IMG/VR virus record: IMGVR_UViG_3300047281_000098
Span: 32,001 to 96,000 of that record
Length of the DNA stretch: 64,000 nucleotides
Source: a virus
Strand: one strand, 5' to 3'
The first letter of the stretch is position 1. Each line of letters begins with the position of its first letter. Positions 12,938 to 57,000 of this stretch are shown here, piece after piece. The translations under genes and the position numbers were made by a program. A model generated the notes under the pieces. It was not told where the DNA came from. It saw nothing but the letters and a program-made list of their open reading frames with translations, and ran no database searches.

Positions 12938-13273
12938 ATGAAGACATTATACGACCTTGAAAGTACGGGCTTACATAGTTTTAAGCGAGGTGAACTAACA
13001 TTGTTCACTGCTTATAGGCAGTCTGGCAAAAGTATGCTTAATCAATTGTACGGGACAATTATGACAAAAGGAAACTTTGAGATAACAGATCAGGCCCCAG
13101 TAGATGGAGAGACTTGGTATACTGTTGCGTGTGTCAGTGTCGTATGCGAATGGATGCGTGAGCAACCCAAAGAATTGTGGCACGAACACATTGACCTTAG
13201 GTGGATTCATTATTCAAACAAGTTTGACATACATGAAAAACTCTATACCGTGTTAGCACTGCGATGGAGCTAG
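12938..13273 (+). CDS. FxLRW-family member with N-terminal Walker-A-like fragment
   Basis: RGELTLFTAYRQSGKS at the N-terminus; ends VLALRWS. Confidence 0.75.
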   Translation: MKTLYDLESTGLHSFKRGELTLFTAYRQSGKSMLNQLYGTIMTKGNFEITDQAPVDGETWYTVACVSVVCEWMREQPKELWHEHIDLRWIHYSNKFDIHEKLYTVLALRWS

Positions 13274-13500
13274 AACTAAGTGAAGGTGGAATACACGGTG
13301 CCAGGTATTATATAGTCAGACCCTGGCCATGGGACTCGCACATCACCTGGCTCACAATGGAAGCATGGGCTATTGGAACATTCGGACCAGACGGTGGCTC
13401 TATTTGGAATAATCTTAACTCACGCTGGTATATGAATAATAGCAAATTCTGGTTTCGCACTGAAGCGGATCGTACTTTTTTTATATTAAGATGGCAATGA
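13264..13500 (+). CDS. FxLRW-family mini-protein
   Basis: WAIGTFG...FRTEADRTFFILRWQ. Confidence 0.75.
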   Translation: MELELSEGGIHGARYYIVRPWPWDSHITWLTMEAWAIGTFGPDGGSIWNNLNSRWYMNNSKFWFRTEADRTFFILRWQ

Positions 13501-13697
13501 GAATTCAAAAAGTGTCCAGCAGTGACAACATACATGCTCCTGGCGAATATATGTATAAAATTCATGACCACTGTAAAGATAGCGACACCCTGAGGGGGTG
13601 GAGAGACGAAATCAAGTTGGATTGTCTCATTTACTCCAATGTTGCTTATTTCAATACCGAAACAGATGCTATGTTTTTCATACTGAGATGGCAATGA
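13497..13697 (+). CDS. FxLRW-family mini-protein
   Basis: ATGA overlap; FNTETDAMFFILRWQ. Confidence 0.75.
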   Translation: MRIQKVSSSDNIHAPGEYMYKIHDHCKDSDTLRGWRDEIKLDCLIYSNVAYFNTETDAMFFILRWQ

Positions 13698-13858
13698 CTA
13701 CCAATTACAGTTGGCAGTACAATGGTGCTGCCCCGTTCATAGATATCATGCAATGGTGCGTTGATACTTTTGAAAATGCTAACTGGTCTGCCAACTGGGA
13801 AACTTTTAGTTTCAATAATGAAAAAGATTATGTTTGGTTTGTATTGAGGTGGCAATGA
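13694..13858 (+). CDS. FxLRW-family mini-protein
   Basis: ATGA overlap; WCVDTF...FNNEKDYVWFVLRWQ. Confidence 0.75.
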   Translation: MTTNYSWQYNGAAPFIDIMQWCVDTFENANWSANWETFSFNNEKDYVWFVLRWQ

Positions 13859-14097
13859 GAAAACTAATTCCAAATAATATAACTGTTACTGAACAGATTG
13901 CGATCCATCGTCAGTTTTTTAATATGGTTGGAAAATGGCGTCGTAGTCAGCAGCCTGTTTTAAGAAAGGATGAATACTTGCAGTGTTTGGAAGAGGACAG
14001 CGGTGTTCGGTGCCAATATAGTAGCGGTGGTCAGTTGACAGGATTCGAAGTTATTGATGAAAAGACTTATACCTGGTTTGTGTTGAAATGGACATGA
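13855..14097 (+). CDS. FxLRW-family mini-protein
   Basis: ATGA overlap; DEKTYTWFVLKWT. Confidence 0.75.
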   Translation: MRKLIPNNITVTEQIAIHRQFFNMVGKWRRSQQPVLRKDEYLQCLEEDSGVRCQYSSGGQLTGFEVIDEKTYTWFVLKWT

Positions 14098-14330
14098 ACG
14101 ATACTACAAGTTGGATTACCTTTGGTAAAGACCATTATCATTTAAACAGGGTAATGGAGCAGTGGTGTCACGAACATATCGGGCAAGGTGGATGGGCACA
14201 CGAAACACCAAAGGCTTGGGGATGTATGATGGGCGATAAGATTTGGGTAATGCATAGTATGTTTGGTAACACAACTTTTTGCTTTAAAGAAGAAAAAGAC
14301 TTTATGTGGTTTAAGTTGAGGTGGGCATGA
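14094..14330 (+). CDS. FxLRW-family mini-protein
   Basis: ATGA overlap; WCHEHIG...FKEEKDFMWFKLRWA. Confidence 0.75.
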   Translation: MNDTTSWITFGKDHYHLNRVMEQWCHEHIGQGGWAHETPKAWGCMMGDKIWVMHSMFGNTTFCFKEEKDFMWFKLRWA

Positions 14331-14554
14331 GTTTTATAACAGTTTCGCGTAATTTGAACGCTGATGAGTTAAGAGATTGGTTAGTCACCAATGTTGGAAA
14401 AGAGATCGGCAAGGGAGCTTATGCTAGAAAATGTGGCGACGGATGGGACTTGGATACGACCATTGGTTACAGGGAAATTCCCGCTGTCTTAAAATGGGGC
14501 ATAACCATTGATGACGAAGCATTAGCAGTATTTTTTAAATTGAGGTGGGCATGA
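14327..14554 (+). CDS. FxLRW-family mini-protein
   Basis: ATGA overlap; WLVTNVG...DDEALAVFFKLRWA. Confidence 0.75.
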   Translation: MSFITVSRNLNADELRDWLVTNVGKEIGKGAYARKCGDGWDLDTTIGYREIPAVLKWGITIDDEALAVFFKLRWA

Positions 14555-14865
14555 ATAATAAAACAATTGAAGATTTTGTAATCCGTTACGGTGCCAAAGT
14601 AAATTACGAACAAAGACGCGACTATAATACTTATAATACTATGGGTAGGGCAATGGATTACTATTCATTGGATTACTATGGCAATGGTAACAGCATAGTA
14701 GGCATTGAACTACCTTTAAAGGCATTTGAGCACTTAGTCAACTCGGATAATCAAGCTGATGTAGACTATCAAGCTGGTAAGGAAGAGGCTCGCATTCGTG
14801 CTCGGTATCCATCAGTAGCAGAAGCGTATGCTCAATATAAAATGTTACTTGAACTATGCAGATAA
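14551..14865 (+). CDS. Unrelated hypothetical protein inserted in the array
   Basis: ATGA overlap; lacks the motif and ends YAQYKMLLELCR. Confidence 0.7.
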   Translation: MNNKTIEDFVIRYGAKVNYEQRRDYNTYNTMGRAMDYYSLDYYGNGNSIVGIELPLKAFEHLVNSDNQADVDYQAGKEEARIRARYPSVAEAYAQYKMLLELCR

Positions 14866-15251
14866 TTGAATATATTAAAGACAAGTATCTAACTTGGCGT
14901 ACTGGCCAAGATAAGCAAACACGCGATTGGAATAAGTGGTTGTATGAAACTGTTCTATTTCGTGCTGACACGATTGAAAATATGTTTGTGAACTTTAAAT
15001 ACATACTACCAGTGTCCGTAGAGATATTTGATCTTGAAGAACCGTTTGGATGGGCACTGGGCGATGACATTCGACAGTATATGTATCCTAACCGAGCATT
15101 AGGTGACTGTGCGGTTCATTACTTTGCGCGTGGGTTTCGCCATCAATGGGATGGTCGCTTTCACCTTAATGAAATTAGCGGTGGTGATCAAGTGTTTATA
15201 GCAACTAACAACAGCAAGGATGCTATGATGATAGCATTGAAGTATTCATGA
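14856..15251 (+). CDS. Divergent FxLRW-family member
   Basis: Ends NNSKDAMMIALKYS. Confidence 0.7.
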   Translation: MQIIEYIKDKYLTWRTGQDKQTRDWNKWLYETVLFRADTIENMFVNFKYILPVSVEIFDLEEPFGWALGDDIRQYMYPNRALGDCAVHYFARGFRHQWDGRFHLNEISGGDQVFIATNNSKDAMMIALKYS

Positions 15252-15580
15252 ACGATTTACAAATAGAAATACACAAGCGCACTATGAAGCTGCTATCTAC
15301 TGTAATGGCACAATCTATTATAGGGGTGCAACCTATGCCAAATACTGGTATCTTCAATGTAAGGTTTAGTAAATCTAAATATAAATTCAACCGTGCTAAA
15401 TGGTATGTAGCAGTGTATAACTACAACTATTATTACGAAGTAGTTGAATGGTGTGCTGAACAGTTCGGCCCACATCCCGAGCAACCAGATGCTTGGAGTC
15501 GTTGGGTACACAAATACGAAGATACGATTCACTTCCGTGATGAAAAAGATTATATTTGGTTTACATTGAGGTGGTCATGA
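15248..15580 (+). CDS. FxLRW-family member with N-terminal major-capsid-like GVQPM fragment
   Basis: AQSIIGVQPMPNTGIF at the N-terminus; WCAEQFG; FRDEKDYIWFTLRWS. Confidence 0.75.
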   Translation: MNDLQIEIHKRTMKLLSTVMAQSIIGVQPMPNTGIFNVRFSKSKYKFNRAKWYVAVYNYNYYYEVVEWCAEQFGPHPEQPDAWSRWVHKYEDTIHFRDEKDYIWFTLRWS

Positions 15581-15765
15581 AATTACTGGAAGACTACTCA
15601 GTATCATTGAGCGCAGACAGATGGATCAAAATAAAAGAACAATTAACAAAAGTTGAATCTAATTCATTGGTGTCTATTACTTGGACAGGTCCGTTTGAAA
15701 GAACCAGAATATTACGATTTAAATCTGAGAATGATGCATTGATATTTGTATTGAGGTGGAGCTAA
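15577..15765 (+). CDS. FxLRW-family mini-protein
   Basis: ATGA overlap; FKSENDALIFVLRWS. Confidence 0.75.
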   Translation: MKLLEDYSVSLSADRWIKIKEQLTKVESNSLVSITWTGPFERTRILRFKSENDALIFVLRWS

Positions 15766-16016
15766 TGATTACATATAAAGTACTGTGGACCGAGTTACCA
15801 CATATTAAAGTACCGGTATTACACACGGTAATGTATGCTCACAGTACAGATGGAGTAGACGCAAAATATCAACGAAGTTATAAGGATCATTTAGTAGATG
15901 AGTGGTTAAAAGCAAACTGTCGGGCGCCTTACTATCACTCTACCTATCATACAGAAAAGTTTATACAATTTGAAGATGATGAAGATGCTATGTGGTTTTC
16001 TTTGAGGTGGTCATGA
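15765..16016 (+). CDS. FxLRW-family mini-protein
   Basis: TAATG overlap; WLKANC...FEDDEDAMWFSLRWS. Confidence 0.75.
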   Translation: MITYKVLWTELPHIKVPVLHTVMYAHSTDGVDAKYQRSYKDHLVDEWLKANCRAPYYHSTYHTEKFIQFEDDEDAMWFSLRWS

Positions 16017-16273
16017 TATATAACGAAATAGAACAAGACATTATAAACAGAGCAGGCAAGGAACTATCCAGTGAAATTGACTTCCATGTACTTGCTGATT
16101 TATACTCACAAGACGGCTGGACTGAAGTTAATTTGCCGAGACAGCCCAGAGAAACAGTAGTTGAGATTCTATCCTGGTGTGCGAGTCATAATATTAAGTG
16201 CTATGGCAGAGGGCAACGATGGGTGTTTGAGAAGAAGCAAGACGCCTTGTTCTTTAGTTTGAGGTGGGCATGA
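16013..16273 (+). CDS. FxLRW-family member with N-terminal capsid-like helix
   Basis: IEQDIINRAGKELSSEIDFHVLADL; ends FEKKQDALFFSLRWA. Confidence 0.75.
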   Translation: MIYNEIEQDIINRAGKELSSEIDFHVLADLYSQDGWTEVNLPRQPRETVVEILSWCASHNIKCYGRGQRWVFEKKQDALFFSLRWA

Positions 16274-16449
16274 TTGTTACATTACCATATGATCCAGCAT
16301 GGAAAGCATTAGAATGGGCTAAAGACCATTGTCCTGATTATGTTACTAATGAAGTACACCCCCACAAAGCATGGATTCGCCCGATTCAGATTGACTACTT
16401 CTTTTCGTCCGAGCGAGATGCTGTATTTTTTAGTTTGAGGTGGGTATGA
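16270..16449 (+). CDS. FxLRW-family mini-protein
   Basis: WAKDHC...FSSERDAVFFSLRWV. Confidence 0.75.
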   Translation: MIVTLPYDPAWKALEWAKDHCPDYVTNEVHPHKAWIRPIQIDYFFSSERDAVFFSLRWV

Positions 16450-16691
16450 AATACTTTAGCAGTAGCGGAGGCAACAATAAACCATACTTTGCCCATCGTA
16501 TTAAATTACCCAAAGTGGTTAGTGAAGCATATGACTGGTGCTTAGAGTACCCAGATCAAGATAGACCCTTTAGAAGATTCCATGTAGAATGGGATCATTA
16601 TCCAGAGGGAAAATACGGGCATAAAGGTTATGAAATTATTCAATTTGAGTGGGAAGAAGCCGCCATTATGTTTACATTGAGGTGGTTATGA
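16446..16691 (+). CDS. FxLRW-family mini-protein
   Basis: WCLEY...FEWEEAAIMFTLRWL. Confidence 0.75.
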   Translation: MKYFSSSGGNNKPYFAHRIKLPKVVSEAYDWCLEYPDQDRPFRRFHVEWDHYPEGKYGHKGYEIIQFEWEEAAIMFTLRWL

Positions 16692-16957
16692 GAGTAGAGT
16701 TTAGACAAGGTGTGCCTGACGGATGTGCCCGGTGGCTACGTGAGAATGTTGGACTGGGTAATATTGAGGAAGACAGCAACAACAAGAGAACACGGCAGGG
16801 GATGATTGACATGCCTGAGTATGCTTGGTTCTATGAGCGGGTAGCAATTATACCCGACGATGCCTTGAGTCTGCTTTACGAGTCCATTCATTATGTTCCT
16901 ACTATCACAGTTAAAGATCCCGAGTTGGCTACATTTTTTAGTTTGAGGTGGTTATAA
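16688..16957 (+). CDS. FxLRW-family mini-protein
   Basis: WLRENVG...KDPELATFFSLRWL. Confidence 0.75.
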   Translation: MRVEFRQGVPDGCARWLRENVGLGNIEEDSNNKRTRQGMIDMPEYAWFYERVAIIPDDALSLLYESIHYVPTITVKDPELATFFSLRWL

Positions 16958-17172
16958 TGGTAGACTGGCTTAATGACAGCTCTGACGAAGTTTATTGCGC
17001 TGATTCAGAAGCGTTTGAAAACTTTTTTCATGACTTCTGCCTAAATGGAAAAGCCAAAGGAGCAGAATGGGGTCCTGACTATTGGGAACAACATGGCATT
17101 AAGGTTGTGAACAGTAGAGTAGAATATGATACCCCTGCACATCGCACTATGTTTTTATTGAGGTGGTTATGA
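16957..17172 (+). CDS. FxLRW-family mini-protein
   Basis: TAATG overlap; YDTPAHRTMFLLRWL. Confidence 0.75.
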   Translation: MVDWLNDSSDEVYCADSEAFENFFHDFCLNGKAKGAEWGPDYWEQHGIKVVNSRVEYDTPAHRTMFLLRWL

Positions 17173-17432
17173 AGAAACCTAAACCAAAGAAGCCAAAAGC
17201 TAAAATACCCAAAGGTGCATTGATAGTTGACTACGGCTTGTATCGTGTAATCCTACCTTATAAACACCCGATTGACTTGTATAATAACAAAGAATTAGAT
17301 ATAATATGTGAATGGTGCGATAGAACATTTCCAAAAGATGATTGGAGATGTAGCAGAAGTAGCTGGCCAGGTCATGTCTACTTTTTAAAAGAAAGCTATC
17401 TGACAATGTTTTTATTGATGTGGGCAAAATAA
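17169..17432 (+). CDS. FxLRW-family member with Lys/Pro-rich N-terminus
   Basis: WCDRTF...FLKESYLTMFLLMWAK. Confidence 0.7.
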   Translation: MKKPKPKKPKAKIPKGALIVDYGLYRVILPYKHPIDLYNNKELDIICEWCDRTFPKDDWRCSRSSWPGHVYFLKESYLTMFLLMWAK

Positions 17433-17433
17433 T

Positions 17434-17874
17434 ATGGTTCAGCTAACTAGACCTGTACCGCCAAAACCAAGCATGATACCGTGGCCATATAAGTTGCCTC
17501 GCAATAAATTAGAAAGACAAGAAGATATGGCTAAATGGGAAATACATAAACGAGCAGGCAATCTAGTAGAAGCTGCTTGGTGGCACTGGATGCCAGGGGT
17601 AACAATTAATGTTAAATGGCCTGTTGGTTTAGTATTTGTGCTTGATGAAAAAGATCGTCGGTGGGATTGGACCATGGGAACAACCAAGCAATCATTTGAC
17701 TCGGCGGACCCTAACGACCATTATAGACCTTGGCTTGAAAAGAATGTTGGCAAGCAGGGATGGGATTGGCAATGGGGACTTAGAGATAACAACGCAGCAG
17801 AGAATAGACTTACTATTAAAGTTAGAACTAAACATGCCAAGTGGGCAACAGTCGCCTCACTTCTGTGGGGATAA
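17434..17874 (+). CDS. Divergent FxLRW-family member
   Basis: WLEKNVGKQGWDW...WATVASLLWG. Confidence 0.7.
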   Translation: MVQLTRPVPPKPSMIPWPYKLPRNKLERQEDMAKWEIHKRAGNLVEAAWWHWMPGVTINVKWPVGLVFVLDEKDRRWDWTMGTTKQSFDSADPNDHYRPWLEKNVGKQGWDWQWGLRDNNAAENRLTIKVRTKHAKWATVASLLWG

Positions 17875-17877
17875 GTA

Positions 17878-18099
17878 ATGGATTTTGACTTCAACAAGGA
17901 AAAGCGATTTATCCTTGTCCCTGCTAATCTTGAGTTTTCAAAACTCATGGTCATACTAACTGATATGGACTATTGGAACACACATTACGAAGCACTCAAA
18001 GACTGGTGCGATCTACAACTAGGAACTAATCAAGTTGGGATGACGGTTGAGTTCGACAGTGAGCAGGACCTGATGTTGTTTATATTAAGATGGAGCTAG
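17878..18099 (+). CDS. FxLRW-family mini-protein
   Basis: LKDWC...FDSEQDLMLFILRWS. Confidence 0.75.
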   Translation: MDFDFNKEKRFILVPANLEFSKLMVILTDMDYWNTHYEALKDWCDLQLGTNQVGMTVEFDSEQDLMLFILRWS

Positions 18100-18100
18100 A

Positions 18101-18367
18101 GTGAAACACATATTCAGAAATTTAATTCGCAAAGAGAAATGGACTCTTGTGGAAATTAAGCCGACCAAGGACACAATGTGGTCTTCTGGTGGGGAAGATT
18201 TAAATCGGCAAGACTATATTAAAATGCGGAATTGGTGCGAACAAACTTTTCACAAAGAAGTATTCGCCACTTCATTACAATCAGTACACGGAGTTAGTCC
18301 TGGATTGAAACGATTCATATTCAACAATCCCGCAGATGCCACGATGTTCAGATTGCGTTGGGAATGA
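18101..18367 (+). CDS. FxLRW-family mini-protein
   Basis: WCEQTF...FNNPADATMFRLRWE. Confidence 0.75.
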   Translation: MKHIFRNLIRKEKWTLVEIKPTKDTMWSSGGEDLNRQDYIKMRNWCEQTFHKEVFATSLQSVHGVSPGLKRFIFNNPADATMFRLRWE

Positions 18368-18597
18368 CTAAGACCTCTGTTACAGTTTACGGTGCGTATG
18401 CTCCAATGCTAAAATGGCTAAGTGACAACATAGGCGCGGAGCTTCACAGTATGCCAATTGTTTTTTGGTACGGAAAAGGTTGGTTCATGAAACGCACATC
18501 TGATATTAGAGAAGAAAGAGTTGGACTCAGGGCTGGCTGGTCAGTTGATTTTGATGATGATCAGAATGCGACATGGTTCGCATTAATATGGGGATAA
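18364..18597 (+). CDS. FxLRW-family mini-protein
   Basis: WLSDNIG...FDDDQNATWFALIWG. Confidence 0.75.
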   Translation: MTKTSVTVYGAYAPMLKWLSDNIGAELHSMPIVFWYGKGWFMKRTSDIREERVGLRAGWSVDFDDDQNATWFALIWG

Positions 18598-18598
18598 T

Positions 18599-18874
18599 AT
18601 GGCAATTTTAAATACACACGCACATGGATACTTTAGAGCAGTTGAATACGAGACAATAGAAGTAATAGACATGCCTCGCACCTACGGCGCCAAGAAAGTA
18701 TACACGTATGATTGTAGGGCAAAGTCAGAAGATCCAAGCATTATTGTAAAATGGTGCAGAAGAAACTTTGGGCAGCGAGGTGATGGTTGGGACTTTACTT
18801 TTCACTCAGACCGTGTTACAATAGAGATTACAAAAGACGAGTTTAAGACAATGTACGAAATGTGGAAACTATAA
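18599..18874 (+). CDS. Divergent FxLRW-family member
   Basis: WCRRNFGQRGDGWDF...FKTMYEMWKL. Confidence 0.7.
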   Translation: MAILNTHAHGYFRAVEYETIEVIDMPRTYGAKKVYTYDCRAKSEDPSIIVKWCRRNFGQRGDGWDFTFHSDRVTIEITKDEFKTMYEMWKL

Positions 18875-19419
18875 TGGCAAATAATGTAATGATAGATTTG
18901 GAAACGCTGGACACAAGTCCATTCTGCGTTATCCTCACGATTGGAGCAGTAGTATTCGACCCTAAGGGCAACGGTATCGTTGACAAGATTGATCTGCGAC
19001 CTTCAATTGAAGAACAACTTGATATGGGCAGAGTTATCAACGATGAAACTGTTAAGTGGTGGGGCAATCAAAGTGAGGCGGCGCAACATGAAGCACTAGG
19101 TGATCATGACCGAATTCCCTTCAAGGAAGCAATGGAGAAACTTCATAAATTCTGTTGGAACAAAGGTAACCCCTGGAGTCACGGCGCAGCGTTTGACATT
19201 GTAGCAGTGGAAACATCTTGGGCCAGCTTTAAGATGCAACCACCATGGGACTTTTACAAAGTACGAGACACACGAACATTGTTTGATGTTACTGGAGTGA
19301 ATCTTAAAGACGGTGGTTATGTGACAACTCACAAGGCTTCCGAAGATGCGGCACGTCAGGCATTCATTGTACAGAAGGCGTATAAGATTCTCATTGCCGC
19401 CGGAGTAACCCCTCCGTGA
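18874..19419 (+). CDS. DEDDh 3'-5' exonuclease (DexA/RNase T-like)
   Basis: MIDLETL, HGAAFD, RDTRT, H.A..DA. Start set at the TAATG overlap. Confidence 0.85.
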   Translation: MANNVMIDLETLDTSPFCVILTIGAVVFDPKGNGIVDKIDLRPSIEEQLDMGRVINDETVKWWGNQSEAAQHEALGDHDRIPFKEAMEKLHKFCWNKGNPWSHGAAFDIVAVETSWASFKMQPPWDFYKVRDTRTLFDVTGVNLKDGGYVTTHKASEDAARQAFIVQKAYKILIAAGVTPP

Positions 19420-19423
19420 AATT

Positions 19424-19678
19424 ATGAAGATTAATCCTAAACTTAAACCAGACGAGTTAGCTCTTTTATCAGTAGATTCTGCTAGGAGATATTTTCTATT
19501 AAACGTTAATACCACTAAACTAGCACCGGACGAAGATTCTATACAGCATGAGTTTGCACTGTGGTTAGAAACAGAATACTCCTGTAAAATGTGGCGCCCG
19601 TATAAAGGAGCAACAAGACGGTTGAAATTTAATGATATGGCTAAATTAGTTTGGTTTAAACTCAAATATGAAATTTAA
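19424..19678 (+). CDS. Outlying FxLRW-family member between exonuclease and polymerase
   Basis: WLETEY...FNDMAKLVWFKLKYEI. Confidence 0.65.
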   Translation: MKINPKLKPDELALLSVDSARRYFLLNVNTTKLAPDEDSIQHEFALWLETEYSCKMWRPYKGATRRLKFNDMAKLVWFKLKYEI

Positions 19679-20267
19679 CGGTGACGTTGACATTGATCTA
19701 GGAAACAGGGACTTACTGTTGGAACACATTAAGCATATTCCTGCGGCTATGCGTAATATAACACCTATAAGAAAGCACTCCACTGGAATTCATATCACTG
19801 ATATTCCATATGATCCTATCAATAATATCGCGTCAATTGACTATGCCGCTGCTGAATCGCGCGGGTATTTTAAGCTGGACTTGCTGAATGTTCATGTATA
19901 TGCTAATGTACGTGATGAGTCACATTTAGTAGAATTAATGCGCGAGCCAGATTGGAATCTACTGAATGACAGAGAATTTGTAAGTACGCTTATACATTTA
20001 GGTAATCATTATCAAAGTATACAGCGTATGATTGAGCCTATCAATAGTATTCCCAGACTGGCTATGTTTCTGGCAATGATCAGACCTGCAAAAAAGCATC
20101 TGATAGGCTTGCCATGGAGTGAGGTTGCGAAGACTATTTGGGAGAAAGATAGTGACGGCGGGTATAGCTTTAAGAGAAGTCACGCAGTTGCGTATTCACA
20201 GTTAGTCACTGTACATATGAATCTGTTACAGGAAATGCCTGTTACGAAATTCTTTTCACAAGAGTAA
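19668..20267 (+). CDS. dnaE: Miniature family-C DNA polymerase (DnaE-like catalytic core)
   Basis: DVDID, HSTG, FKLDLL, LAMIRP, YSFKRSHAVAY occur in DnaE order within 199 aa. Confidence 0.8.
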   Translation: MKFNGDVDIDLGNRDLLLEHIKHIPAAMRNITPIRKHSTGIHITDIPYDPINNIASIDYAAAESRGYFKLDLLNVHVYANVRDESHLVELMREPDWNLLNDREFVSTLIHLGNHYQSIQRMIEPINSIPRLAMFLAMIRPAKKHLIGLPWSEVAKTIWEKDSDGGYSFKRSHAVAYSQLVTVHMNLLQEMPVTKFFSQE

Positions 20268-20622
20268 TGGATCTTCTTTTTGATCGACGCTTGCTTAGGT
20301 CTGACATACTACATACGGGGCCGTGTAGTATTACTAAGCTTTTGTTATTGAATGTTCTGATATATGGTCTGAAGATTGCCCAATCTTCTTTTAAAAACAA
20401 GTTGATAGGGATAAGTCTGTTGCTTTCCCACCACCATATATCACCTAATTCTAGAAATTTCTCTTTAACTGCTAAGTCCTGTATAGCACCATAATCATAT
20501 ATAGTGGTAACGACATCATCACGATTCTGAACAATTCCCACGTAGTCTTGGCTGGCGTATGAACAGATTGTGATGAAAGGGTGATTCTCGCTTAGGCGTT
20601 TAAAGAATTCGTTAGGTATCAT
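20242..20622 (-). CDS. Hypothetical protein
   Basis: 126-aa ORF preceded by a minus-strand TAAATA (20642-20647); WWWES.R.IPI. Confidence 0.7.
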   Translation of the reverse strand: MIPNEFFKRLSENHPFITICSYASQDYVGIVQNRDDVVTTIYDYGAIQDLAVKEKFLELGDIWWWESNRLIPINLFLKEDWAIFRPYIRTFNNKSLVILHGPVCSMSDLSKRRSKRRSITLVKRIS

Positions 20623-20727
20623 TGATAATGTGTATTAAGTTTATTTATCTGCGGAAAGAATTCGGGTATTATTCCTGAATGACTAAATATAAGATATGCT
20701 AAATATAACATTAGAAGCGAATAACAA

Positions 20728-21501
20728 ATGTATGCAACCTCAGTTTTCTCCTATATCCCTCGGCAAATTGTCGTTGTCTTATCCGGCAACTCGGTAAGGA
20801 AATATATGCCCGTTTATGCTAAACCACTCACATTACACAAAGGTGTCGACAACCAGCTGCAGTTTCAGTTCCTTAATCAAGAGCAGAAACCTGTTAATAT
20901 CACTGGTGCGGAGATCACATGCCGTATTTTAAACTATCAAGGTAATACTGTGCTTCTTCAGAAAGCACTGACCCTACAATTAGCAGCCACAGGTATTGCT
21001 GCTCTTCAACTAAACGCAGCAGACATTGAGGGTATTGATCCACAAAAATGCTATTACACATTAGAAATTCCAGTTGGTAGTTTCAATTACCCAGTATTCG
21101 TGGATCAGAACGCAGGTGGTCGCGGTGATCTAAACATCGTTAATTCTATTCTACCAAGCTTTGTGCCGTCACAAAGTGTGTCTATTCCTACTGGGCAATT
21201 GTTCCCGAATAACAATTCAAGCGCAAATGCCAATTCAAACGCACTAACATATTTTACCAGTGTTTGGTCAACTGATGATAATCCAATTTCAACTATTCAA
21301 GCAGAATACACTGGGTTTTATGGTAACGTTCAGATTCAAGGTTCCACAATAGTAGACGGTGATTGGTATAACATTGGAAACACGTATGTCTATTCAAACG
21401 TATCCGATACCATTGGATATTCCTTTACTGGATATCATCCATACATCCAAGTACAATTCATCAGTAATATTGGTGATGTTACTAACATTTTAAGAAGATA
21501 G
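20728..21501 (+). CDS. Putative virion structural (baseplate-like) protein
   Basis: Late TAAATA at 20684 and 20700; beta-rich; F.FLNQEQKPVNITG. Confidence 0.5.
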   Translation: MYATSVFSYIPRQIVVVLSGNSVRKYMPVYAKPLTLHKGVDNQLQFQFLNQEQKPVNITGAEITCRILNYQGNTVLLQKALTLQLAATGIAALQLNAADIEGIDPQKCYYTLEIPVGSFNYPVFVDQNAGGRGDLNIVNSILPSFVPSQSVSIPTGQLFPNNNSSANANSNALTYFTSVWSTDDNPISTIQAEYTGFYGNVQIQGSTIVDGDWYNIGNTYVYSNVSDTIGYSFTGYHPYIQVQFISNIGDVTNILRR

Positions 21502-21551
21502 ATCACCGTATCTATTGTATTTTCGTGTTCACTATGTTATAATAGATGAAC

Positions 21552-22532
21552 ATGTTTGATATTCTATCTATATTACCTGGCAAGAAAAAAACAACGAGTA
21601 GCGGCTGGACAAGTTTCAACGCTGTTTGTTGTAGCCATCTTGGACACAAGTCCGATCGCCGTATGCGCGGCGGTATTAAGTTTGACGGTCAATCCAAATG
21701 GACCATGAACTGTTTCAATTGTAGATACTCATGTAATTTTGTATTAGGCAAATCAATAAGCCCAAAAACTAGACAGCTTCTTATTTGGTGCGGTATTGAC
21801 AGTGAACAGATTCAACGATGGAGTCTGGAGAGTTTACAACATAAAGACTTACTGGACTTTTCAGGTGACGTTCTACCTCGTAAAAAAGTAAAATTCAAAG
21901 AGCAGGAATTGCCAACTGATGCTGAATTAATAAACGTAAACAACCCTGATCATAAGATATACACTGACTATTTGATCAAACGACATATTGATCCTAATGA
22001 ATATCCGTTTATGGTAACTCCGCATATTCAGGGTAGAAATAACAATCGCATAATTGTACCGTATACTTATAAAAATAAGATCGTTGGACATACTAGTAGA
22101 TACCTAGATAATAAATTACCAAAGTATATCAATTCTCAACAGCACGGATATGTATTCGGATTTGACTTTCAAAAACCTGAATGGAATATATGTCTGGTAG
22201 TTGAGGGTATATTTGATGCGCTGAGTTTGAATGCGTGCGCTACAATGCATAACACAATCAATGACGATCAAGCACAGGTATTAGCACAGTTAAACAAACA
22301 GATAATAGTAGTACCGGATAGAGACCGTGCCGGATTAGAAATATGTAGTCGTGCGTTAGAGTTAGGATATAGTATTAGCTTACCAAATTGGCACGTTGAT
22401 GTAAAGGATGTTAACGATGCGATAATCCGTTACGGAAAGCTTCCAACGCTAATGAGTATATTACAAGCAGCCACGATGTCTAAAATTAAAATCGAAATGC
22501 AAAGGAAAAAAATTGAAAAAACAAGAATCTAA
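21552..22532 (+). CDS. gp61: DNA primase (gp61-like)
   Basis: N-terminal Zn motif (CC...CFNC); TOPRIM VVEGIFDA, PDRDRAG, KDVND. Promoter TATAAT 21538 favours the second ATG. Confidence 0.85.
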   Translation: MFDILSILPGKKKTTSSGWTSFNAVCCSHLGHKSDRRMRGGIKFDGQSKWTMNCFNCRYSCNFVLGKSISPKTRQLLIWCGIDSEQIQRWSLESLQHKDLLDFSGDVLPRKKVKFKEQELPTDAELINVNNPDHKIYTDYLIKRHIDPNEYPFMVTPHIQGRNNNRIIVPYTYKNKIVGHTSRYLDNKLPKYINSQQHGYVFGFDFQKPEWNICLVVEGIFDALSLNACATMHNTINDDQAQVLAQLNKQIIVVPDRDRAGLEICSRALELGYSISLPNWHVDVKDVNDAIIRYGKLPTLMSILQAATMSKIKIEMQRKKIEKTRI

Positions 22533-23952
22533 GAAACAACTTGAATATACTCCTGATGTTCAGAAATTATTTTTGCGAATGATGATAACTAACTCGGAGT
22601 TATACACCCGTGTTATGAACATTATGAACAGCGAGAATTTTGACAGATCGCTGCGCCCAGTGGCAGAAATGTTTAAAGAACATACTGACAAGTATAAGAT
22701 TTTACCTGATGCCACTCAGATTAAAGCAACAACCGGGATTGATATTGAACCGGTGCCTGAATTAAGTGACGGACATTTTGAATGGTTCTTTGATGAGTTT
22801 GAAGCATTCACTAAGCGACAGGAACTTGAGCGTGCGATTCTTAAAGCAGCAGACTTGCTTGAGAAGGGTGATTTTTCTCCTGTGGAAAAGCTAATCAAGG
22901 ACGCAGTTCAAATTAGCCTACAGAAAGACATGGGGACTGACTACTTTGCTGACCCCGCACATCGTATCAATAAGTATTTTAACTCAGGTGGTCAAGTATC
23001 AACTGGCTGGCCACAGATGGATCGTATTTTGTACGGTGGCATGAGTCGCGGCGAACTTAATATCTTTGCAGGTGGCTCTGGTTCTGGTAAGTCACTGGTC
23101 ATGATGAATTTGGCATTGAATTGGCTACAAGTTGGATTGAGCGGAGTTTATATTACACTAGAACTTTCAGAAGAACTAACCTCACTGCGTACTGATGCGA
23201 TGTTAACCAGTATGGGAACTAAAGATATTCGTAAGGATATTGACAATACTGCTTTAAAGGTAGCATTGATAGGGAAGAAGTCTGGTAAGTATCGTGTCAA
23301 GGGACTACCTGCGCAAAGTAATGTCAATGATATTCGTGCTTATCTGAAAGAAGTTCAAATTCAAACTGGTATCAAGATCGACTTTGTTATGGTCGATTAT
23401 CTTGACTTGGTTATGCCAGTATCTGTTAAAGTTAACCCCAACGACCAGTTTATTAAAGACAAATATGTAGCTGAAGAATTGCGAAATTTAAGCAAAGAAT
23501 TAGGCGTGTTGTTAGTTACAGCATCACAGTTGAATCGTTCAGCAGTTGATGAAATTGAGTTTGATCATAGTCACATTGCAGGTGGTATCTCTAAGATTAA
23601 TACAGCGGATAACGTGTTCGGTATCTTCACAAGCCGTAGTATGCGTGAACGTGGTAAGTATCAGATTCAATGTATGAAGTCGCGTAGTTCAACAGGTGTT
23701 GGTATGAAAGTTGATTTGGAATACAACATTGAAACGATGCGTATTACTGACGATGACCCTGAGGGATATGCGGATCAGCAAGCAAAATATACTCCTAAAC
23801 CTAGTCCTAATGATTTAATGACTAGGATGAAGCCTACTCCATACACTGATATTTCTCAACTATCAGATAATTCAGAACCACTGACCAAGAAAATAGTGGC
23901 AAATGTTCAGGGTAGTAAACTAAATGCGCTACTGAATAGTTTAAAGAAATAA
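22513..23952 (+). CDS. gp41: Replicative DnaB-like helicase (gp41-like)
   Basis: STGW, GGSGSGKS, LELSE, VDYLD, TASQLNR, KSRSS. Confidence 0.92.
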   Translation: MKKQESKKQLEYTPDVQKLFLRMMITNSELYTRVMNIMNSENFDRSLRPVAEMFKEHTDKYKILPDATQIKATTGIDIEPVPELSDGHFEWFFDEFEAFTKRQELERAILKAADLLEKGDFSPVEKLIKDAVQISLQKDMGTDYFADPAHRINKYFNSGGQVSTGWPQMDRILYGGMSRGELNIFAGGSGSGKSLVMMNLALNWLQVGLSGVYITLELSEELTSLRTDAMLTSMGTKDIRKDIDNTALKVALIGKKSGKYRVKGLPAQSNVNDIRAYLKEVQIQTGIKIDFVMVDYLDLVMPVSVKVNPNDQFIKDKYVAEELRNLSKELGVLLVTASQLNRSAVDEIEFDHSHIAGGISKINTADNVFGIFTSRSMRERGKYQIQCMKSRSSTGVGMKVDLEYNIETMRITDDDPEGYADQQAKYTPKPSPNDLMTRMKPTPYTDISQLSDNSEPLTKKIVANVQGSKLNALLNSLKK

Positions 23953-44044: not shown

Positions 44045-47000
44045 ATGGCATTAACATCACCAGGCGTAGAAGTAACAATCACAGACCAGAGCCAATACTT
44101 ACCGGCTCCGGGTGGATCAGTTCCACTTGTTATATTAGCTACTGCACAAAACAAAGCAGACGCATCTGGTACAGGAGTTGCAGCTGCAACTACTGCTGCT
44201 AATGCAGGGAAATTATATCAGATAACAAGTCAACGCGATTTGGTAAATCTATATGGTTCACCGTTCTTCTACTCAACAACTAACGGAACACCTATTCAAG
44301 GATATGAATTAAATGAATACGGTCTATTAGCTGCTTACTCAACATTAGGTGTTACTAATCGTTGTTATGTATTACGTGCTGATATTGACTTGGCTAGTTT
44401 AGTTGGTCAAACAGGTCGTCCAGTTGGATTTCCAGAAAATAATACTTACTGGTTAGATACTACTAGCAGCACTTGGGGCATATATGTATTCAATCAAACT
44501 ACTGGTAAATTTTCGTTACAAACTCCTATTGTCATTACTAACCCTGATGATTTAACAGGTGGGGTACCTAATTCAACTATAGGAAATATTGGTAATTATG
44601 CGGTTAACGCATTGGAAACTGCATATTCATTCGAGTCCGATGCATCAAATAGAGAATTCTTCTATAAATCTTCTTTCAATGTTTGGGTACCATTAGGCGG
44701 TACGGCATGGAAGAAAGATGTGCCTACAGTATCAGGAACAACATCAAATCCTGTACTAAGTCCGGGCACATTTACTATCAATTTAAATGGAATATATATT
44801 ACTACAATAACAGTTCCAGTATTTCCTAACAATAATGTATATGGTGTAGCAGCAGCAATAAATAATTTAAATTGGTTTCAATTAACTGCTAGTGTACGAA
44901 ATAATAAATTGTGTATTTTTTCATCACAAAATAGTAATTTGTCCGGGGCAATGACTCTTTCTCAAACAGGTACTGTGTTAGATGAACTTGGTATAGTAGC
45001 AAAAACATATTATCAAGCAGGTGTTGAATTTGGTACTGCAGCGCAAATGCCATTATGGACTTCTAGTCAAGCCCAACCGCACCCAACTGGGTCTGTATGG
45101 ATAAAGGTTGGTCAATCTGGTAACGGTTTAGCACCAGTTGTTGCTAATTTTAATGCAGTAACTAATATTTGGCAAAATAAAAACGTGTCATTGGCAACCT
45201 CAGATGCTCAGGTTAATTCCAATTTAGATGCTACTGGTGGTAAATTAATTCCTGCCGGATCTATCTATGCTCAATATGATCCTAGTTACGTAACAGCACC
45301 TCTATATCTATGGGAAAGAATCGCTACTGGGCCTACTGTTGTGACAGGAAGTGTATCAAATCCTGTACTTAACAGCGGTCCGTACGTGATGACTGTACAA
45401 ACATCAGTGCCAGGATCTCCGACTTTATCATCAGTGTATTCTGTAACAGTACCTGACAACACAGACGCTAGTGGATTTGTAACTGCTTGGACTGCGACAA
45501 ATATATTATATACTACTGCCTCAGTAACTACTGACGGTGCTATTCAGATAACTCATACTGATGGTGGATCAATTAATCTTTCTGATCTAGTAGCTGGTGT
45601 ATCTAACGGATTGTTATCCGCAGTTGGATTCAATATCAATAGTACTGCTGGATGTAAATACGGGCCAACTGTATCAATTAATTTCTCAGACGTTCCTCAG
45701 CTATCAACAACTGGTGTGGGAACAAATGGTCTGTTTAATATTATATCTGAATATTCAGCATATGTTGTATCATTTGGTGGAGTTGGCTCTACTGGTGGTA
45801 GTGGATATGCAGTAGGTGATAATATTACTATTTCAGGCGCAGTGCTTGGTGGTACTACACCTACAAATGATCTAGTTATCAAAGTAACTAGTGTAAGTAT
45901 TACAAATGCTATAACTTCAGTGATGTATGTATCAGGATCTACTCCTAATAATTACGCAACAGAATTGAGCAATTGGAGATCATTTACTTATACAGCAAAT
46001 GAAGGTTCACCAGTAGCTGCGCCTGTCAATGATACAAATTGGTTCTTCAGTGTTGTTGATCAAGTTGATATTATGGTACAAAAAGGCGGTGTGTGGATTG
46101 GTTACGGTCAAACGTCATACGATAGTTCAGGTTTCCCTGCTGCTACTGGTGTTAATGCCACTGATCCTAACGGACCAATCATTGCTGCTACTGCTCCTAC
46201 TACCCAAAGTGATGGTACAGCATTGGTATACGGTGATTTATGGATGAGTACAAGTGACTTGGAACTATATCCTCTACTATCTCGTTGGGAAGCAATCGAT
46301 TCTTTGACCAATGGTTGGGTTCTTTTAGACAATTCAGATCAAGTAAGTTCATCTGGTGTTGTATTTGCGGATGCTCGTTGGGCAACTTCAGGCACAGTAA
46401 GTCCTACTGATGATCCTATCGCAACTATCCCTACATTGCTACAAAGCAATTATCTAGATTTAGATGCTCCTACTGCTACGCTATATCCACAAGGTATGTT
46501 GTTGTTTAACACACGCCGCTCAGGTTATAACGTTAAGCAATACAAAGCTAATTACTTCAATTCAACTGACTTCGCTGGTGATACATTACCAGTTCAAAAA
46601 GCAGCTTGGGTCACGATAAGTGGTAATCAAGCAAATGGTTCTCCGTATATGGGTCGTAAAGCTCAACGTGCAGTAGTTGTTCAAGCAATGAATGCTGTTG
46701 TTGCTACTAACATGGCAATACGTGATGAAGACAATGCGTTTAACTTAATGGCAGCTCCTAATTATCCTGAACTACAGCCTAACATGGTTGTGTTGAATAA
46801 TGATCGTGGTGATACTGGATACATATTAGGTGACACCCCAATGCGTTTACCTGACGATGCTACTGCTATTCAAGCATGGGCTACTAACGCAGCAGGTGCT
46901 ACATCAACCGGCGAAGATGGTTGCGTAACTCGTGATACTTATTTAGGATTGTTCTACCCAAGTGGTATCACTAACGATTTATCAGGTAATTTAGTTGCAG

Positions 47001-47593
47001 TTCCAGCTTCACACATGATGCTAAGAACATTCATCCGTAGTGATAATGTTTCTTATCCTTGGTTAGCAGCAGCAGGTACTCGTCGTGGTACTATTGATAA
47101 TGCGACTAACATTGGTTATCTAGATGGTCAAACAGGTGAATTCCAGACAATTAAAACTCGTATAGGTATTCGTGACGTTCTATATACTAACTTCATTAAC
47201 CCAATGGTGTTCTTCACTGGAGTTGGACTATTGAATTACGGTAATAAAACAAGCTTTAATTCATCAAGCGCATTAGACAGAGTTAACGTTGCTCGTTTAG
47301 TAGCTTACATACGTAGACAACTAACATTAGCTGCTCGTCCATTCGTGTTCGAACCAAATGATGCGTTGACTCGTCAACAAATCGCTGGTGTTGTTCAAAC
47401 ATTGATGGTAGACTTGGTTGCTAAACGTGGTCTATATGATTATCTAGTAGTATGTGATGATTCAAATAATACTCCTGCTAGAATTGATCGCAATGAGCTT
47501 TGGATTGACGTTGCTATTGAGCCCGTCAAGGCAGCTGAATTCATCTACATCCCTGTTCGTATATTGAACACAGGTGAATTGTCAGGCAAATAA
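44045..47593 (+). CDS. gp18: Contractile tail sheath protein (gp18-like) with large internal insertion
   Basis: L.SPGVEV...D.S N-terminus; PWLAAAG.RRG, INP, GNKT, ALDRVNVARL, FEPND..TR, VVCD.SNNTP..IDRNEL, P.KAAEFI. Confidence 0.93.
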   Translation: MALTSPGVEVTITDQSQYLPAPGGSVPLVILATAQNKADASGTGVAAATTAANAGKLYQITSQRDLVNLYGSPFFYSTTNGTPIQGYELNEYGLLAAYSTLGVTNRCYVLRADIDLASLVGQTGRPVGFPENNTYWLDTTSSTWGIYVFNQTTGKFSLQTPIVITNPDDLTGGVPNSTIGNIGNYAVNALETAYSFESDASNREFFYKSSFNVWVPLGGTAWKKDVPTVSGTTSNPVLSPGTFTINLNGIYITTITVPVFPNNNVYGVAAAINNLNWFQLTASVRNNKLCIFSSQNSNLSGAMTLSQTGTVLDELGIVAKTYYQAGVEFGTAAQMPLWTSSQAQPHPTGSVWIKVGQSGNGLAPVVANFNAVTNIWQNKNVSLATSDAQVNSNLDATGGKLIPAGSIYAQYDPSYVTAPLYLWERIATGPTVVTGSVSNPVLNSGPYVMTVQTSVPGSPTLSSVYSVTVPDNTDASGFVTAWTATNILYTTASVTTDGAIQITHTDGGSINLSDLVAGVSNGLLSAVGFNINSTAGCKYGPTVSINFSDVPQLSTTGVGTNGLFNIISEYSAYVVSFGGVGSTGGSGYAVGDNITISGAVLGGTTPTNDLVIKVTSVSITNAITSVMYVSGSTPNNYATELSNWRSFTYTANEGSPVAAPVNDTNWFFSVVDQVDIMVQKGGVWIGYGQTSYDSSGFPAATGVNATDPNGPIIAATAPTTQSDGTALVYGDLWMSTSDLELYPLLSRWEAIDSLTNGWVLLDNSDQVSSSGVVFADARWATSGTVSPTDDPIATIPTLLQSNYLDLDAPTATLYPQGMLLFNTRRSGYNVKQYKANYFNSTDFAGDTLPVQKAAWVTISGNQANGSPYMGRKAQRAVVVQAMNAVVATNMAIRDEDNAFNLMAAPNYPELQPNMVVLNNDRGDTGYILGDTPMRLPDDATAIQAWATNAAGATSTGEDGCVTRDTYLGLFYPSGITNDLSGNLVAVPASHMMLRTFIRSDNVSYPWLAAAGTRRGTIDNATNIGYLDGQTGEFQTIKTRIGIRDVLYTNFINPMVFFTGVGLLNYGNKTSFNSSSALDRVNVARLVAYIRRQLTLAARPFVFEPNDALTRQQIAGVVQTLMVDLVAKRGLYDYLVVCDDSNNTPARIDRNELWIDVAIEPVKAAEFIYIPVRILNTGELSGK

Positions 47594-54066: not shown

Positions 54067-57000
54067 ATGGCACAAAATAATATTGACTTCGGAACATTTC
54101 CGGATGATCCTAGCGCAGACGCGATACGAACAGCATTTCAAAAAGTTCAAGACAACTTTGATCAAGTATTTGCTGTAACTACCGGAGCATCAGTTACTTC
54201 AGTAAATAAGACGCCCGGGGTAGGCATTACTGTTAGTTCTCCGATCGGAGATGTAGTTGTCAGTGCTAATATCGCATGTGTTCAAGTTAGTACCAGCTCA
54301 CTAAGTATAGGACGCGGCAGTAACGGTGGAACATCAACTTCAATCACTGCGTCAAGTCAAATTTTAGTAATTGACATTAATCCAACTAATGTATTCTCAA
54401 ACAGTTTTGCAGCAGTCGGAGGCGGTTTAGCAAATATTACTGGAAAATTAACAGTAGCTGCTAATGCTCAACCAAACATTACATCAGTTGGTACTTTGAC
54501 TACTTTAGCAGTATCAGGCAATATCTCGGCTGGAAATGTTGCTGCGACCACATTTACTGGTAATTTTACTGGTAATGCCACAACAGCGGGTACAGTAACC
54601 ACTGCTGCGCAGCCAAACATAACATCAGTTGGTACATTAACATCATTAGTAGTAACCGGTAACATCACATCAGGCAATGCTAATTTAGGCAATTTAGCAC
54701 GTGCTAACTTTATTCAAGGGACATTAACCACTGCTGCGCAGCCAAACATCACAAGTACAGGTACACTGTCTTCGTTAGCAGTAACTGGTAACGTAACAAG
54801 TGGAAATGCTAACTTAGGTAACTTGTTAATTGCTAACTTCCATCAAGGAACATTAACAACGGCTGCTCAACCAAATATTACATCAGTTGGTACTTTAACT
54901 GCTTTAGCTGTTACGGGAAATGTCACTTCAGGTAATGCTAACTTAGGTAACTTGTCAATTGCTAACTTCATTCAAGGAACATTAACAACTGCTGCTCAGC
55001 CAAATATCACGTCTGTTGGAACATTAAGTTCTTTGGCAGTAACAGGTAACATTTCAGGTGCTAATCTAACTGGAACTCATTATGGCGCAGCAACCGGACT
55101 AACAGCAATTCCGGGTGCTAATGTAACTGGTACAGTAGCTAATGCGACATACGCAGTAAGCTCAGGCACGGCCGGTAGTGCTACTACTGCAGGTACGGTA
55201 ACAACGGCTGCTCAACCAAATATTACATCAGTTGGTACGTTAACTGCTTTAGCTGTTACGGGAAATGTCACTTCAGGTAATGCTAACTTAGGTAACTTGT
55301 CAATTGCTAACTTCATTCAAGGAACATTAACAACTGCTGCTCAGCCAAACATCACTTCAACAGGTACTTTAACTGCGTTAGCAGTAACTGGTAATATTTC
55401 TGGTGCGAATATCACAGGTACTCATTACGGTGCAGCTACTGGACTAACAGCAATTCCGGGTGCTAATGTAACTGGTACAGTAGCTAATGCGACATACGCA
55501 GTAAGCGCGGGGACAGCGGGTACAGTAACAACTGCTGCTCAGCCAAACATCACTAGTACAGGAACTTTAACTGCTCTTGCAGTAACTGGAAACATTACAT
55601 CAGGTAACGCCAACTTAGGTAACTTGTTAATTGCTAACTTCATTCAAGGAACATTAACAACTGCTGCGCAGCCAAACATCACAAGTACAGGTACACTGTC
55701 TTCGTTGGCAGTAACTGGTAACATTTCGGCTGGTAATGTTTCTGCTACGACTTTTACAGGGGCGTTCACTGGAAATTCAACTACAGCAGGTACAGTAACA
55801 ACTGCTGCGCAACCAAATATTACATCAGTTGGTACGTTGACTTCTCTAGCAGTTTCAGGTAATATTACGTCGGGAAATGTTTCAGCAACAACTTTCACCG
55901 GTGCGTTAACTGGTCTTGCTTCAAGTGCGACAGTAGCTGCTTCAGCAAACGCCGTAGCAGGGGCGAATGTAAGCGGGCAAGTAGCAAACGCATTAGTAGC
56001 CGGCACTGTGTATACTGCGGCACAACCAAACATCACTAGTACAGGTACTTTAACTTCGTTATCAGTGACCGGCAATATATCCGCAGCAAACGTAAATGCA
56101 GCTACATTTGGAGCACATAACGGAACAGTCGGAGCATCTACTCCTAACACAGTGGCAGCAACTTCGATAACAGCTACGACAACAATAGCTGCTACTGGTA
56201 ACTTGTCAGGTGCTAATATAAACACCGCTGGTGTTCTATCTGTCACGGGTAACGCTAATGTCGGTAATTTAGGTACTGCTGGATTAATCGTTGCAACTGG
56301 TAATATCACCGGTGGAAATTTAGTTACTGCTGGAAATTTATCAGTTACTGGTAATGCAATTATTACTGGAAATCTATCAGCCGCAGTATTCACGGGCGCT
56401 GGAACTGGGCTTACTTTCTTGCCAGGTGCTAATGTATCTGGCACAGTAGCTAATGCGACATACGCAGTAAGTTCAGGTACAGCAGGTAGTGCTACTACAG
56501 CGGGTACAGTAACAACTGCGGCACAACCAAACATCACTTCAACTGGTACTTTAACTGCGTTAGCAGTCACTGGCAATATCTCCGGTGCTAACATCAATGG
56601 TACTTTCTATGGCGCAGCAACTGGACTAACTTCAATCCCGGGCGCGAATGTAACTGGTACTGTACCACTTGCTGCAAGTGCTACTACAGCGGGTACAGTA
56701 ACAACTGCGGCACAACCAAACATCACTTCAACTGGTACTTTAACTGCGTTAGCAGTCACTGGCAATATCTCCGGTGCTAACATCACAGGTACTCATTACG
56801 GAGCAGCTACTGGATTAACTTCAATCCCTGGCGCGAATGTATCTGGTACAGTAGCCAATGCGACATACGCAGTAAGTTCAGGTACAGCGGGTACAGTAAC
56901 AACTGCAGCACAACCAAACATCACATCAGTTGGTATATTAACATCATTAGCAGTAACCGGCAATATATCAGGTGCTAATGTAACTGGTACACATTATGGG

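Follow-up and report, generated by a model that had tools for sequence, protein, structure and literature searches.

Family C DNA polymerases are the replicases of bacteria and are usually more than 1,000 residues long. Iyer, Anantharaman, Krishnan, Burroughs and Aravind (2021, Viruses 13:63; PMC7824862) predicted computationally that group 2.2 jumbo phages encode a 'minimal split DNA polymerase III alpha'; they found it beside a family B polymerase and considered that it may help make one strand or act in repair. The DnaE of group 3.2 jumbo phages is of a different type, being host-like, single-chain and PHP-containing, and serving as the replicase (Iyer et al. 2021, PMC7824862). The genome papers of phages CBB and Atu_ph07 list gp43 homologues and regard the N-terminal half of the split enzyme as a 'truncated' Pol III alpha, the authors of the CBB paper setting its 172 amino acids (aa) against 1120 aa. 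A split phage polymerase is also the subject of a 2026 preprint, which deals with chimalliviruses and another enzyme. The stretch of viral DNA analysed here (64,000 nucleotides, positions 32,001 to 96,000 of the 105-kb IMG/VR record IMGVR_UViG_3300047281_000098; hereafter the window) carries at 19668-20267, on the plus strand, the 199-aa C-terminal half (C-half) of such a split DNA polymerase III alpha, while its N-terminal half (N-half) is encoded in the same record beyond the end of the window. We estimate a probability of about 0.8 that the C-half is the C-terminal subunit of a two-subunit minimal family C nucleotidyltransferase, the heterodimer being an accessory, poorly processive polymerase that works beside a family B replicase.

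The open reading frame (ORF) of the C-half begins with ATG and continues for 199 codons without interruption. It displays five motifs in the order GDVDID (residues 5-10), KHSTG (36-40), FKLDLL (68-73), LAMIRP (135-140) and YSFKRSHAVAY (166-176), with the key residues D6/D8, D71, K69, H37/G40 and, in the fingers core, R139-P140 and F168-K-R-S-H172. Only 5 residues precede the DxD. A first, sequence-only reading of the window had named the same motifs in the same order as those of DnaE, and all five do align with Escherichia coli DnaE (sequence taken from the MG1655 record). The PHROG 11778 profile ('DNA polymerase') matches residues 4-190 over profile positions 6-194 of 197 (E 5e-55). Pfam returns no real match to the C-half (best GLOD4_N, E 0.078), and because it does not recognise the protein, many GenBank records label it hypothetical or 'putative membrane protein'. 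A single-sequence phmmer search of the PDB likewise returned no match. The family profile, made from an alignment of 74 full-length representatives that were retrieved by searching 1.84 billion proteins without an index, matches the E. coli, Thermus and Mycobacterium tuberculosis DnaE chains in the PDB with E-values of 9.5e-6 to 1e-4. In the profile alignment, C-half residues 54-140 fall on E. coli DnaE 538-641 (K69/D71 on K553/D555, R139-P140 on R639-P640), and residues 151-180 on 739-769 (F168-K-R-S-H172...Y176 on F756-N-K-S-H760...Y764). The same alignment places D6/D8/D10 on E. coli D401/D403/D405, a stretch that scores weakly on its own, and plain pairwise alignment shifts by two positions within the D-x-D-x-D repeat. 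K36-H-S-T-G40 corresponds to K510-H-A-G-G514 in a segment-wise local alignment.

An AlphaFold2 model of the C-half, with a mean per-residue confidence (pLDDT) of 94.3, was searched against 48,161 PDB chains with no Foldseek pre-filtering. All of the seven best structural matches are family C polymerases, including PolC (3f2b, Z 9.4), M. tuberculosis DnaE1 (5lew, Z 9.3), Thermus DnaE (2hpi, Z 9.2) and the E. coli enzyme (5m1s, Z 7.6). These PolC/DnaE superpositions span 195-196 of the 199 residues, and the best unrelated chain has a Z of 3.7. A second structural comparison was similar (PolC/DnaE up to Z 9.6, best unrelated Z 3.0). Foldseek alone also ranks Pol III alpha chains in all of the top 15 places, but with weak E-values (best 1.8e-3). 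Overall, the correspondence of the C-half with DnaE is far beyond chance.

The sequence-only reading had pointed to the rest of the genome as a possible source of other DnaE pieces, and one is indeed present, 48.8 kb downstream and outside the window. A search of the whole 105-kb record with PF07733 gave a single match, at G000:C1:100709-100939, within a gene for a 168-aa protein at G000:C1:100433-100939 (equal to L003:1225-1731, or 68433-68939 in window numbering). This gene, the N-half, begins 48,765 bp downstream of where the C-half does, 4.4 kb past the window end. Its PF07733 score is 33.5 bits, above the cut-off of 23.9, and covers profile positions 20-94 of 260; PHROG 11127 matches it with an E-value of 1e-38. 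It carries the GVGRGSS nucleotide-binding loop and ends with ...WGVGRGSSVASFVLFLIGIHKINSLYYDLSIDEFLK, followed by the stop codon. An hhalign comparison sets N-half residues 124-168 on E. coli DnaE 349-393 (...GPGRGSGAGS...FERFLN). The C-half resumes about 5 residues past E. coli 393 (start ~397-399), at the PDFDVD strand, and the palm itself is therefore interrupted, the nucleotide-binding GS loop falling on one side of the break and the metal-binding strand on the other. No single chain contains a complete palm, since its first half (E. coli ~280-393) belongs to a separate protein. Modelled alone, the N-half has a pLDDT of 68.8, which drops under 50 exactly at residues 133-168, and its match to DnaE 280-362 (Z 3.6) is not significant alone; its membership therefore rests on Pfam, PHROG and hhalign. 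No counterpart of the first ~70 N-half residues was found in DnaE, Pfam or the PDB.

Of the 'split or miniaturised Pol C replicase' that had been envisaged, the split is real. The C-half is not a whole, stand-alone minimal DnaE, as the N-terminal half of the palm, and with it the GS loop, is absent from it. Nor is the enzyme one sixth of the normal length, as had been reckoned from the C-half: its two chains add up to ~367 aa, roughly a third of DnaE.

The same arrangement is seen throughout the relatives. Each of five larger relatives has exactly one PF07733 match, which is the N-half, reaching over approximately profile positions 19-104 and ending at the stop codon. The N-halves of five other genomes all terminate in EFLK or EFLN, then stop. 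In 82 loci, no N-half is encoded in the flanks of up to ~6 kb that surround the C-half, and where both positions are known the distance between the two genes is 36 to ~224 kb. A tblastn search located the C-half in 96 phage records, 93 of which cover at least 80% of the query, and the N-half in 94; the genera are represented in nearly the same numbers for both. Among the carriers are the PA5oct group, the RaK2/121Q/GAP32/CBB group, Atu_ph07, Phosso, XacN1 and Vibrio 2.275.O. Across the clade, a split enzyme is the rule, and both the split and the identity of the two halves are shown.

Both halves belong to large families. The word-indexed search gave 4,068 C-half clusters at 90% identity, with lengths of 189-206 aa among the 120 listed, and the unindexed search 374 clusters at 50% identity, and in metagenomes at least 4,000 C-half and ~8,000 N-half clusters at 90% identity were found. 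The isolates nearest to the present C-half are 38-46% identical; the present copy comes from an uncultured phage and sits in a large environmental subclade (54-97% identity). In the 74 representatives, which are 30-55% identical to the present copy, D6, D8, K69, D71 and P140 are invariant, and D10, H37, G40, R139, K169 and H172 are at least 90% conserved. The ratio of nonsynonymous to synonymous change (dN/dS) of the C-half against two close environmental relatives is 0.11 (dS 0.13) and 0.05 (dS 1.6, near saturation). The ORF is real, intact, as already proposed from the sequence, and under strong purifying selection.

These figures bear on the idea that the C-half is a decaying remnant of a captured full-length dnaE, or that the two halves are joined by a split intein, an idea to which we assign next to no probability. 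DnaE split inteins exist. The N-half here ends in ...EFLK and the C-half has 5 residues before its DxD, which leaves no room for intein halves of ~100 and 35 aa. As for decay, the word 'truncated' used for the N-half by the CBB authors would fit it, and it is opposed by thousands of homologues of the same length, by the invariant catalytic residues and by dN/dS values of 0.05-0.11. The sequence-only reading had itself named two signs that would tell against a functional enzyme, namely full-length homologues beside a decaying copy and catalytic aspartates that vary among relatives. Neither is seen: the homologues are about 190-206 aa long, and D6, D8 and D71 are the same in all 74 representatives.

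The two halves probably form one enzyme. The signs of this are computational or indirect: a complex is predicted for them, the N-half alone is disordered at residues 133-168, and a natural fusion of the two (P0282) exists. Complex prediction for the N-half with the C-half gave a score of 0.88, against 0.01 for the best control. This level was attained by 58 of 80 solved complexes and by 2 of 110 mismatched pairs. At least 95% of contacts recur between runs, and the pLDDT of the partner is at least 86. In the predicted interface, N-half residues 125-142 (the GS loop and its helix) lie against C-half residues 1-13 (the DxD strand), and N-half residues 3-11, 28-32 and 61-74 pack on the C-half sheet (20-23, 43-51 and 65-68). 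Judging from this model, the leading ~70 residues of the N-half may replace contacts of the lost DnaE domains. P0282 is a natural protein of 375 aa in which an N-half is followed by a C-half via a 9-residue linker (...NIKEFIK-DNKEGIYNI-ADFDID...). Its locus was not found in a scan of viral contigs. The word index likewise gave no longer relatives, either fused or full-length, a weak negative as the unindexed search did find P0282.

Compared with E. coli DnaE, of which it spans residues ~397-798, the C-half is greatly reduced. Its residues 22-35 replace 419-509, nearly the whole thumb, and its residues 76-199 (~124 residues) correspond to 561 to ~798 with large deletions, replacing fingers of ~350 residues. 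The thumb and fingers borders are presumably those of Lamers et al. 2006. The N-terminal PHP of DnaE/PolC has no place in the C-half, where the DxD is at residue 6. No Pfam match to PHP (PF02811), HHH_6 (PF14579) or DNA_pol3_finger (PF17657) was obtained in the 105-kb record (which is ~30% complete, limiting what absences there mean), in Phosso, in vB_Pa-PAC2 (PAC2) or in a 329-kb IMG/VR genome (G002, rated 100% complete); control genomes were matched. The C-half ends at about E. coli 798, and the HhH, clamp-binding and OB parts would lie beyond that point, the OB and clamp motifs not having been searched with models of their own. There is no room for OB and tau-binding regions in 367 aa, neither of which was searched for separately. 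The absence of PHP, HhH and large parts of thumb and fingers, as given in the sequence-only reading, is confirmed by Pfam and the alignments (that of OB without an own-model search).

With the thumb lost and no HhH or Pfam fingers match, most of the parts with which DnaE holds duplex DNA are missing, and the heterodimer might then be a non-templating nucleotidyltransferase that keeps palm chemistry only, adding untemplated tails, making a signalling or modified nucleotide, or acting in phage-host conflict. Pol-beta-fold enzymes include many non-polymerase transferases, and a second replicase is not obviously required in relatives that have a complete family B replicase. We nevertheless find such a role unlikely. 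The non-palm part that is retained is the best-conserved fingers core of DnaE, in which RP and FxKSH..AY are near-invariant; all 199 residues superpose on PolC/DnaE, while other Pol-beta-fold transferases stay at Z <3; and replication-module neighbourhoods are found in all relatives.

A family B polymerase is present together with both halves in 3 of 3 complete relatives (Phosso, PAC2 and the 329-kb IMG/VR genome), as a protein of 900-1013 aa or as two ORFs. In PAC2, polB is in two separate frames of 825 aa and 379 aa, ~2.5 kb apart (record 202949-206726), a sign that phages of the PA5oct group may have a polB that is interrupted or split. The sequence-only reading had taken the family C enzyme to stand where a family B gp43 would be expected, and the three complete relatives lend such a replacement no support. 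That the split polymerase is the main replicase, in place of gp43, therefore seems highly improbable. Its support is that PF00136 has no match in the 105-kb record itself, nor in three incomplete relatives (74%, 56% and 40% complete). As the record is ~30% complete, its own negative carries little weight. Every complete relative searched has family B plus both halves; the CBB and Atu_ph07 papers list gp43 homologues, and Iyer et al. (PMC7824862) report coexistence of the two polymerases across group 2.2.

The genes around the C-half are largely those of a replication module. Directly upstream are two ORFs on the same strand: a DEDD-type 3'-5' exonuclease, Rv2179c-like, of 185 aa (18862..19419, +; PF16473 E 1e-32, PHROG 255 'exonuclease'), and an 84-aa ORF ending in ...FKLKYEI (19424..19678, +), which sits between the exonuclease and the C-half and whose stop overlaps the C-half start by 11 nucleotides (nt). 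In 35 of 66 related loci an exonuclease of this kind is found at most 2 kb upstream, on the C-half strand, and in 22 of them it directly abuts the C-half. Distant relatives, as well as Phosso and PAC2, have no exonuclease at that position. The exonuclease was rejected as an obligatory partner: its best phage matches are in small siphoviruses, and about half of the related loci do not have it there. It may proofread for the split polymerase in this subclade only, and is a candidate for that task. The ORFs of the region 12938-19678 (+) form a long run of small, tightly coupled frames, many ending in F-x-L-R-W. The C-half may be transcribed together with this upstream, presumably early, array. 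Promoter-like sites in 18500-21000 are not more frequent than in shuffled sequence.

On the other side, a convergent gene of 126 aa (20242..20622, -; PHROG 11637, E 1e-30) overlaps the C-half by 26 nt at the 3' ends. It is present in all 69 related viral loci with enough flank and also in Phosso and PAC2; its identity to relatives is 39-78%, often above that of the C-half, and it has no Pfam match and no Atlas lead. The order 3' of the C-half is this convergent gene, a virion-protein-like gene, a DnaG-type (Toprim) primase (21546..22532, +; Pfam Toprim_2 and DNAG_N; in 53 of 60 loci plus Phosso and PAC2) and a DnaB-like replicative helicase (22513..23952, +; Pfam DnaB_C E 3e-17; in 48 of 54 loci plus Phosso and PAC2). 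On the 3' side of the N-half are a small conserved ORF, a GroES/gp31-like gene (L003:2171-2539; PHROG 931 'head morphogenesis') and an RFC-like clamp-loader ATPase (L003:2837-3229), an order that is identical in PAC2. Further along the window, an ORF of 3,094 aa at 54067-63351 (+) has a weak tail-fibre match (PHROG 6942) and lies 3' of the tail sheath (44045-47593) and tube genes.

From these data we infer the following catalysis and role. The enzyme would be of the DnaE/PolC type, would be confined to T4-related group 2.2 jumbo phages, and would consist of ~367 aa in two chains. The N-half would give the first part of a Pol-beta-like palm, with the GVGRGSS loop, which in DnaE holds the phosphates of the incoming nucleotide. 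The C-half would give the remainder of the palm, the metal-binding D6/D8/D71, and a cut-down fingers core (R139-P140, F168-K-R-S-H172). The break is exactly between E. coli 393 (...ERFLN) and the PDFDVD strand, and the chains must therefore dock non-covalently into one active site; no intein would take part in the joining. The heterodimer would then be an active, template-dependent DNA polymerase of low processivity, at or near a T4-type replisome, assisting the family B enzyme and not replacing it. Possible jobs are the extension of primers from the neighbouring DnaG-type primase, gap filling and repair.

Several points count against an accessory two-chain polymerase. A family B polymerase is not shown in the phage itself, its ~30% complete record having no PF00136 match. 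No biochemical test of any split minimal Pol III alpha member was found in the literature. With the thumb deleted, and with the HhH, OB and clamp-binding parts not found (OB and clamp without own-model searches), a hold on primer-template DNA is hard to explain. No conserved clamp-binding tail was seen by eye at the C-terminus of the C-half, where the last 10 residues are variable and have a pLDDT of 66. The exonuclease linkage is restricted to the subclade with a C-half identity of at least ~57%. The predicted complex may have passed by virtue of its likeness to a DnaE domain solved as a single chain, and so is not independent proof of binding. Lastly, P0282 is a singleton on a 2,415-bp ENA metagenome contig and the only fused form found, so that it is supportive only.

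A bolder version of the accessory-polymerase reading is that the heterodimer is a working template-dependent polymerase and by far the smallest of family C (168 + 199 aa, with no thumb and no clamp-binding part found), and that in this subclade it joins the adjacent stand-alone DEDD exonuclease to make an analogue of the alpha-epsilon core in three pieces. It would then be a living model of the catalytic module of Pol III in its minimal or ancestral state, and would act at a T4-type fork as a second, specialised polymerase. In Bacillus, DnaE takes over RNA primers for PolC, and the heterodimer might do a like job after the DnaG-type primase. This bolder reading is tentative, with the odds somewhat against it. 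A conserved and widespread two-chain version of ~367 residues would, if active, define the smallest workable part of Pol III. Such activity, if true, would also bear on the origin of Pol III and on the reason for which giant T4-like phages retain another polymerase in addition to the family B replicase.

In relation to known systems, the split enzyme shares with bacterial DnaE and PolC (2hnh, 2hpi, 3e0d, 5lew, 3f2b; Z 7.6-9.6) the Pol-beta-like palm, the GS loop, the three aspartates, RP and F-x-K-S-H..A-Y, but has ~367 aa in two chains where those have at least 1,160 aa in one. Cyanobacterial DnaE is likewise encoded by two distant genes (dnaE-n/dnaE-c). The cyanobacterial halves carry intein parts, are spliced into a full-length chain and have a different break site, whereas the split enzyme has no room for an intein and is broken inside the palm. 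With the DnaE of group 3.2 jumbo phages (Bacillus phage G; PHROG 405) it has in common a phage-encoded family C core, the PHROG 405 matches being weak (E 3e-4 for the C-half and 4e-5 for the N-half); it differs in being minimal, two-chain and, in the complete relatives, accompanied by a family B polymerase. The closest described system is that of Iyer et al. (PHROGs 11778 and 11127; PA5oct, RaK2, 121Q, GAP32, CBB, Atu_ph07, Phosso), which is like the present one in its two genes, split point, lengths, conserved residues, distant placement and replication neighbourhoods. The system is thus already published, and the present copy is a further member of the family and no new class. It differs in belonging to an environmental subclade, in the DEDD exonuclease upstream in many members of that subclade, and in the extra 84-aa ORF inserted here. 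What is added to the published picture is the natural fusion, a break point that is exactly conserved, a measure of how large the environmental family is, the exonuclease neighbour of the subclade, and the universal convergent neighbour.

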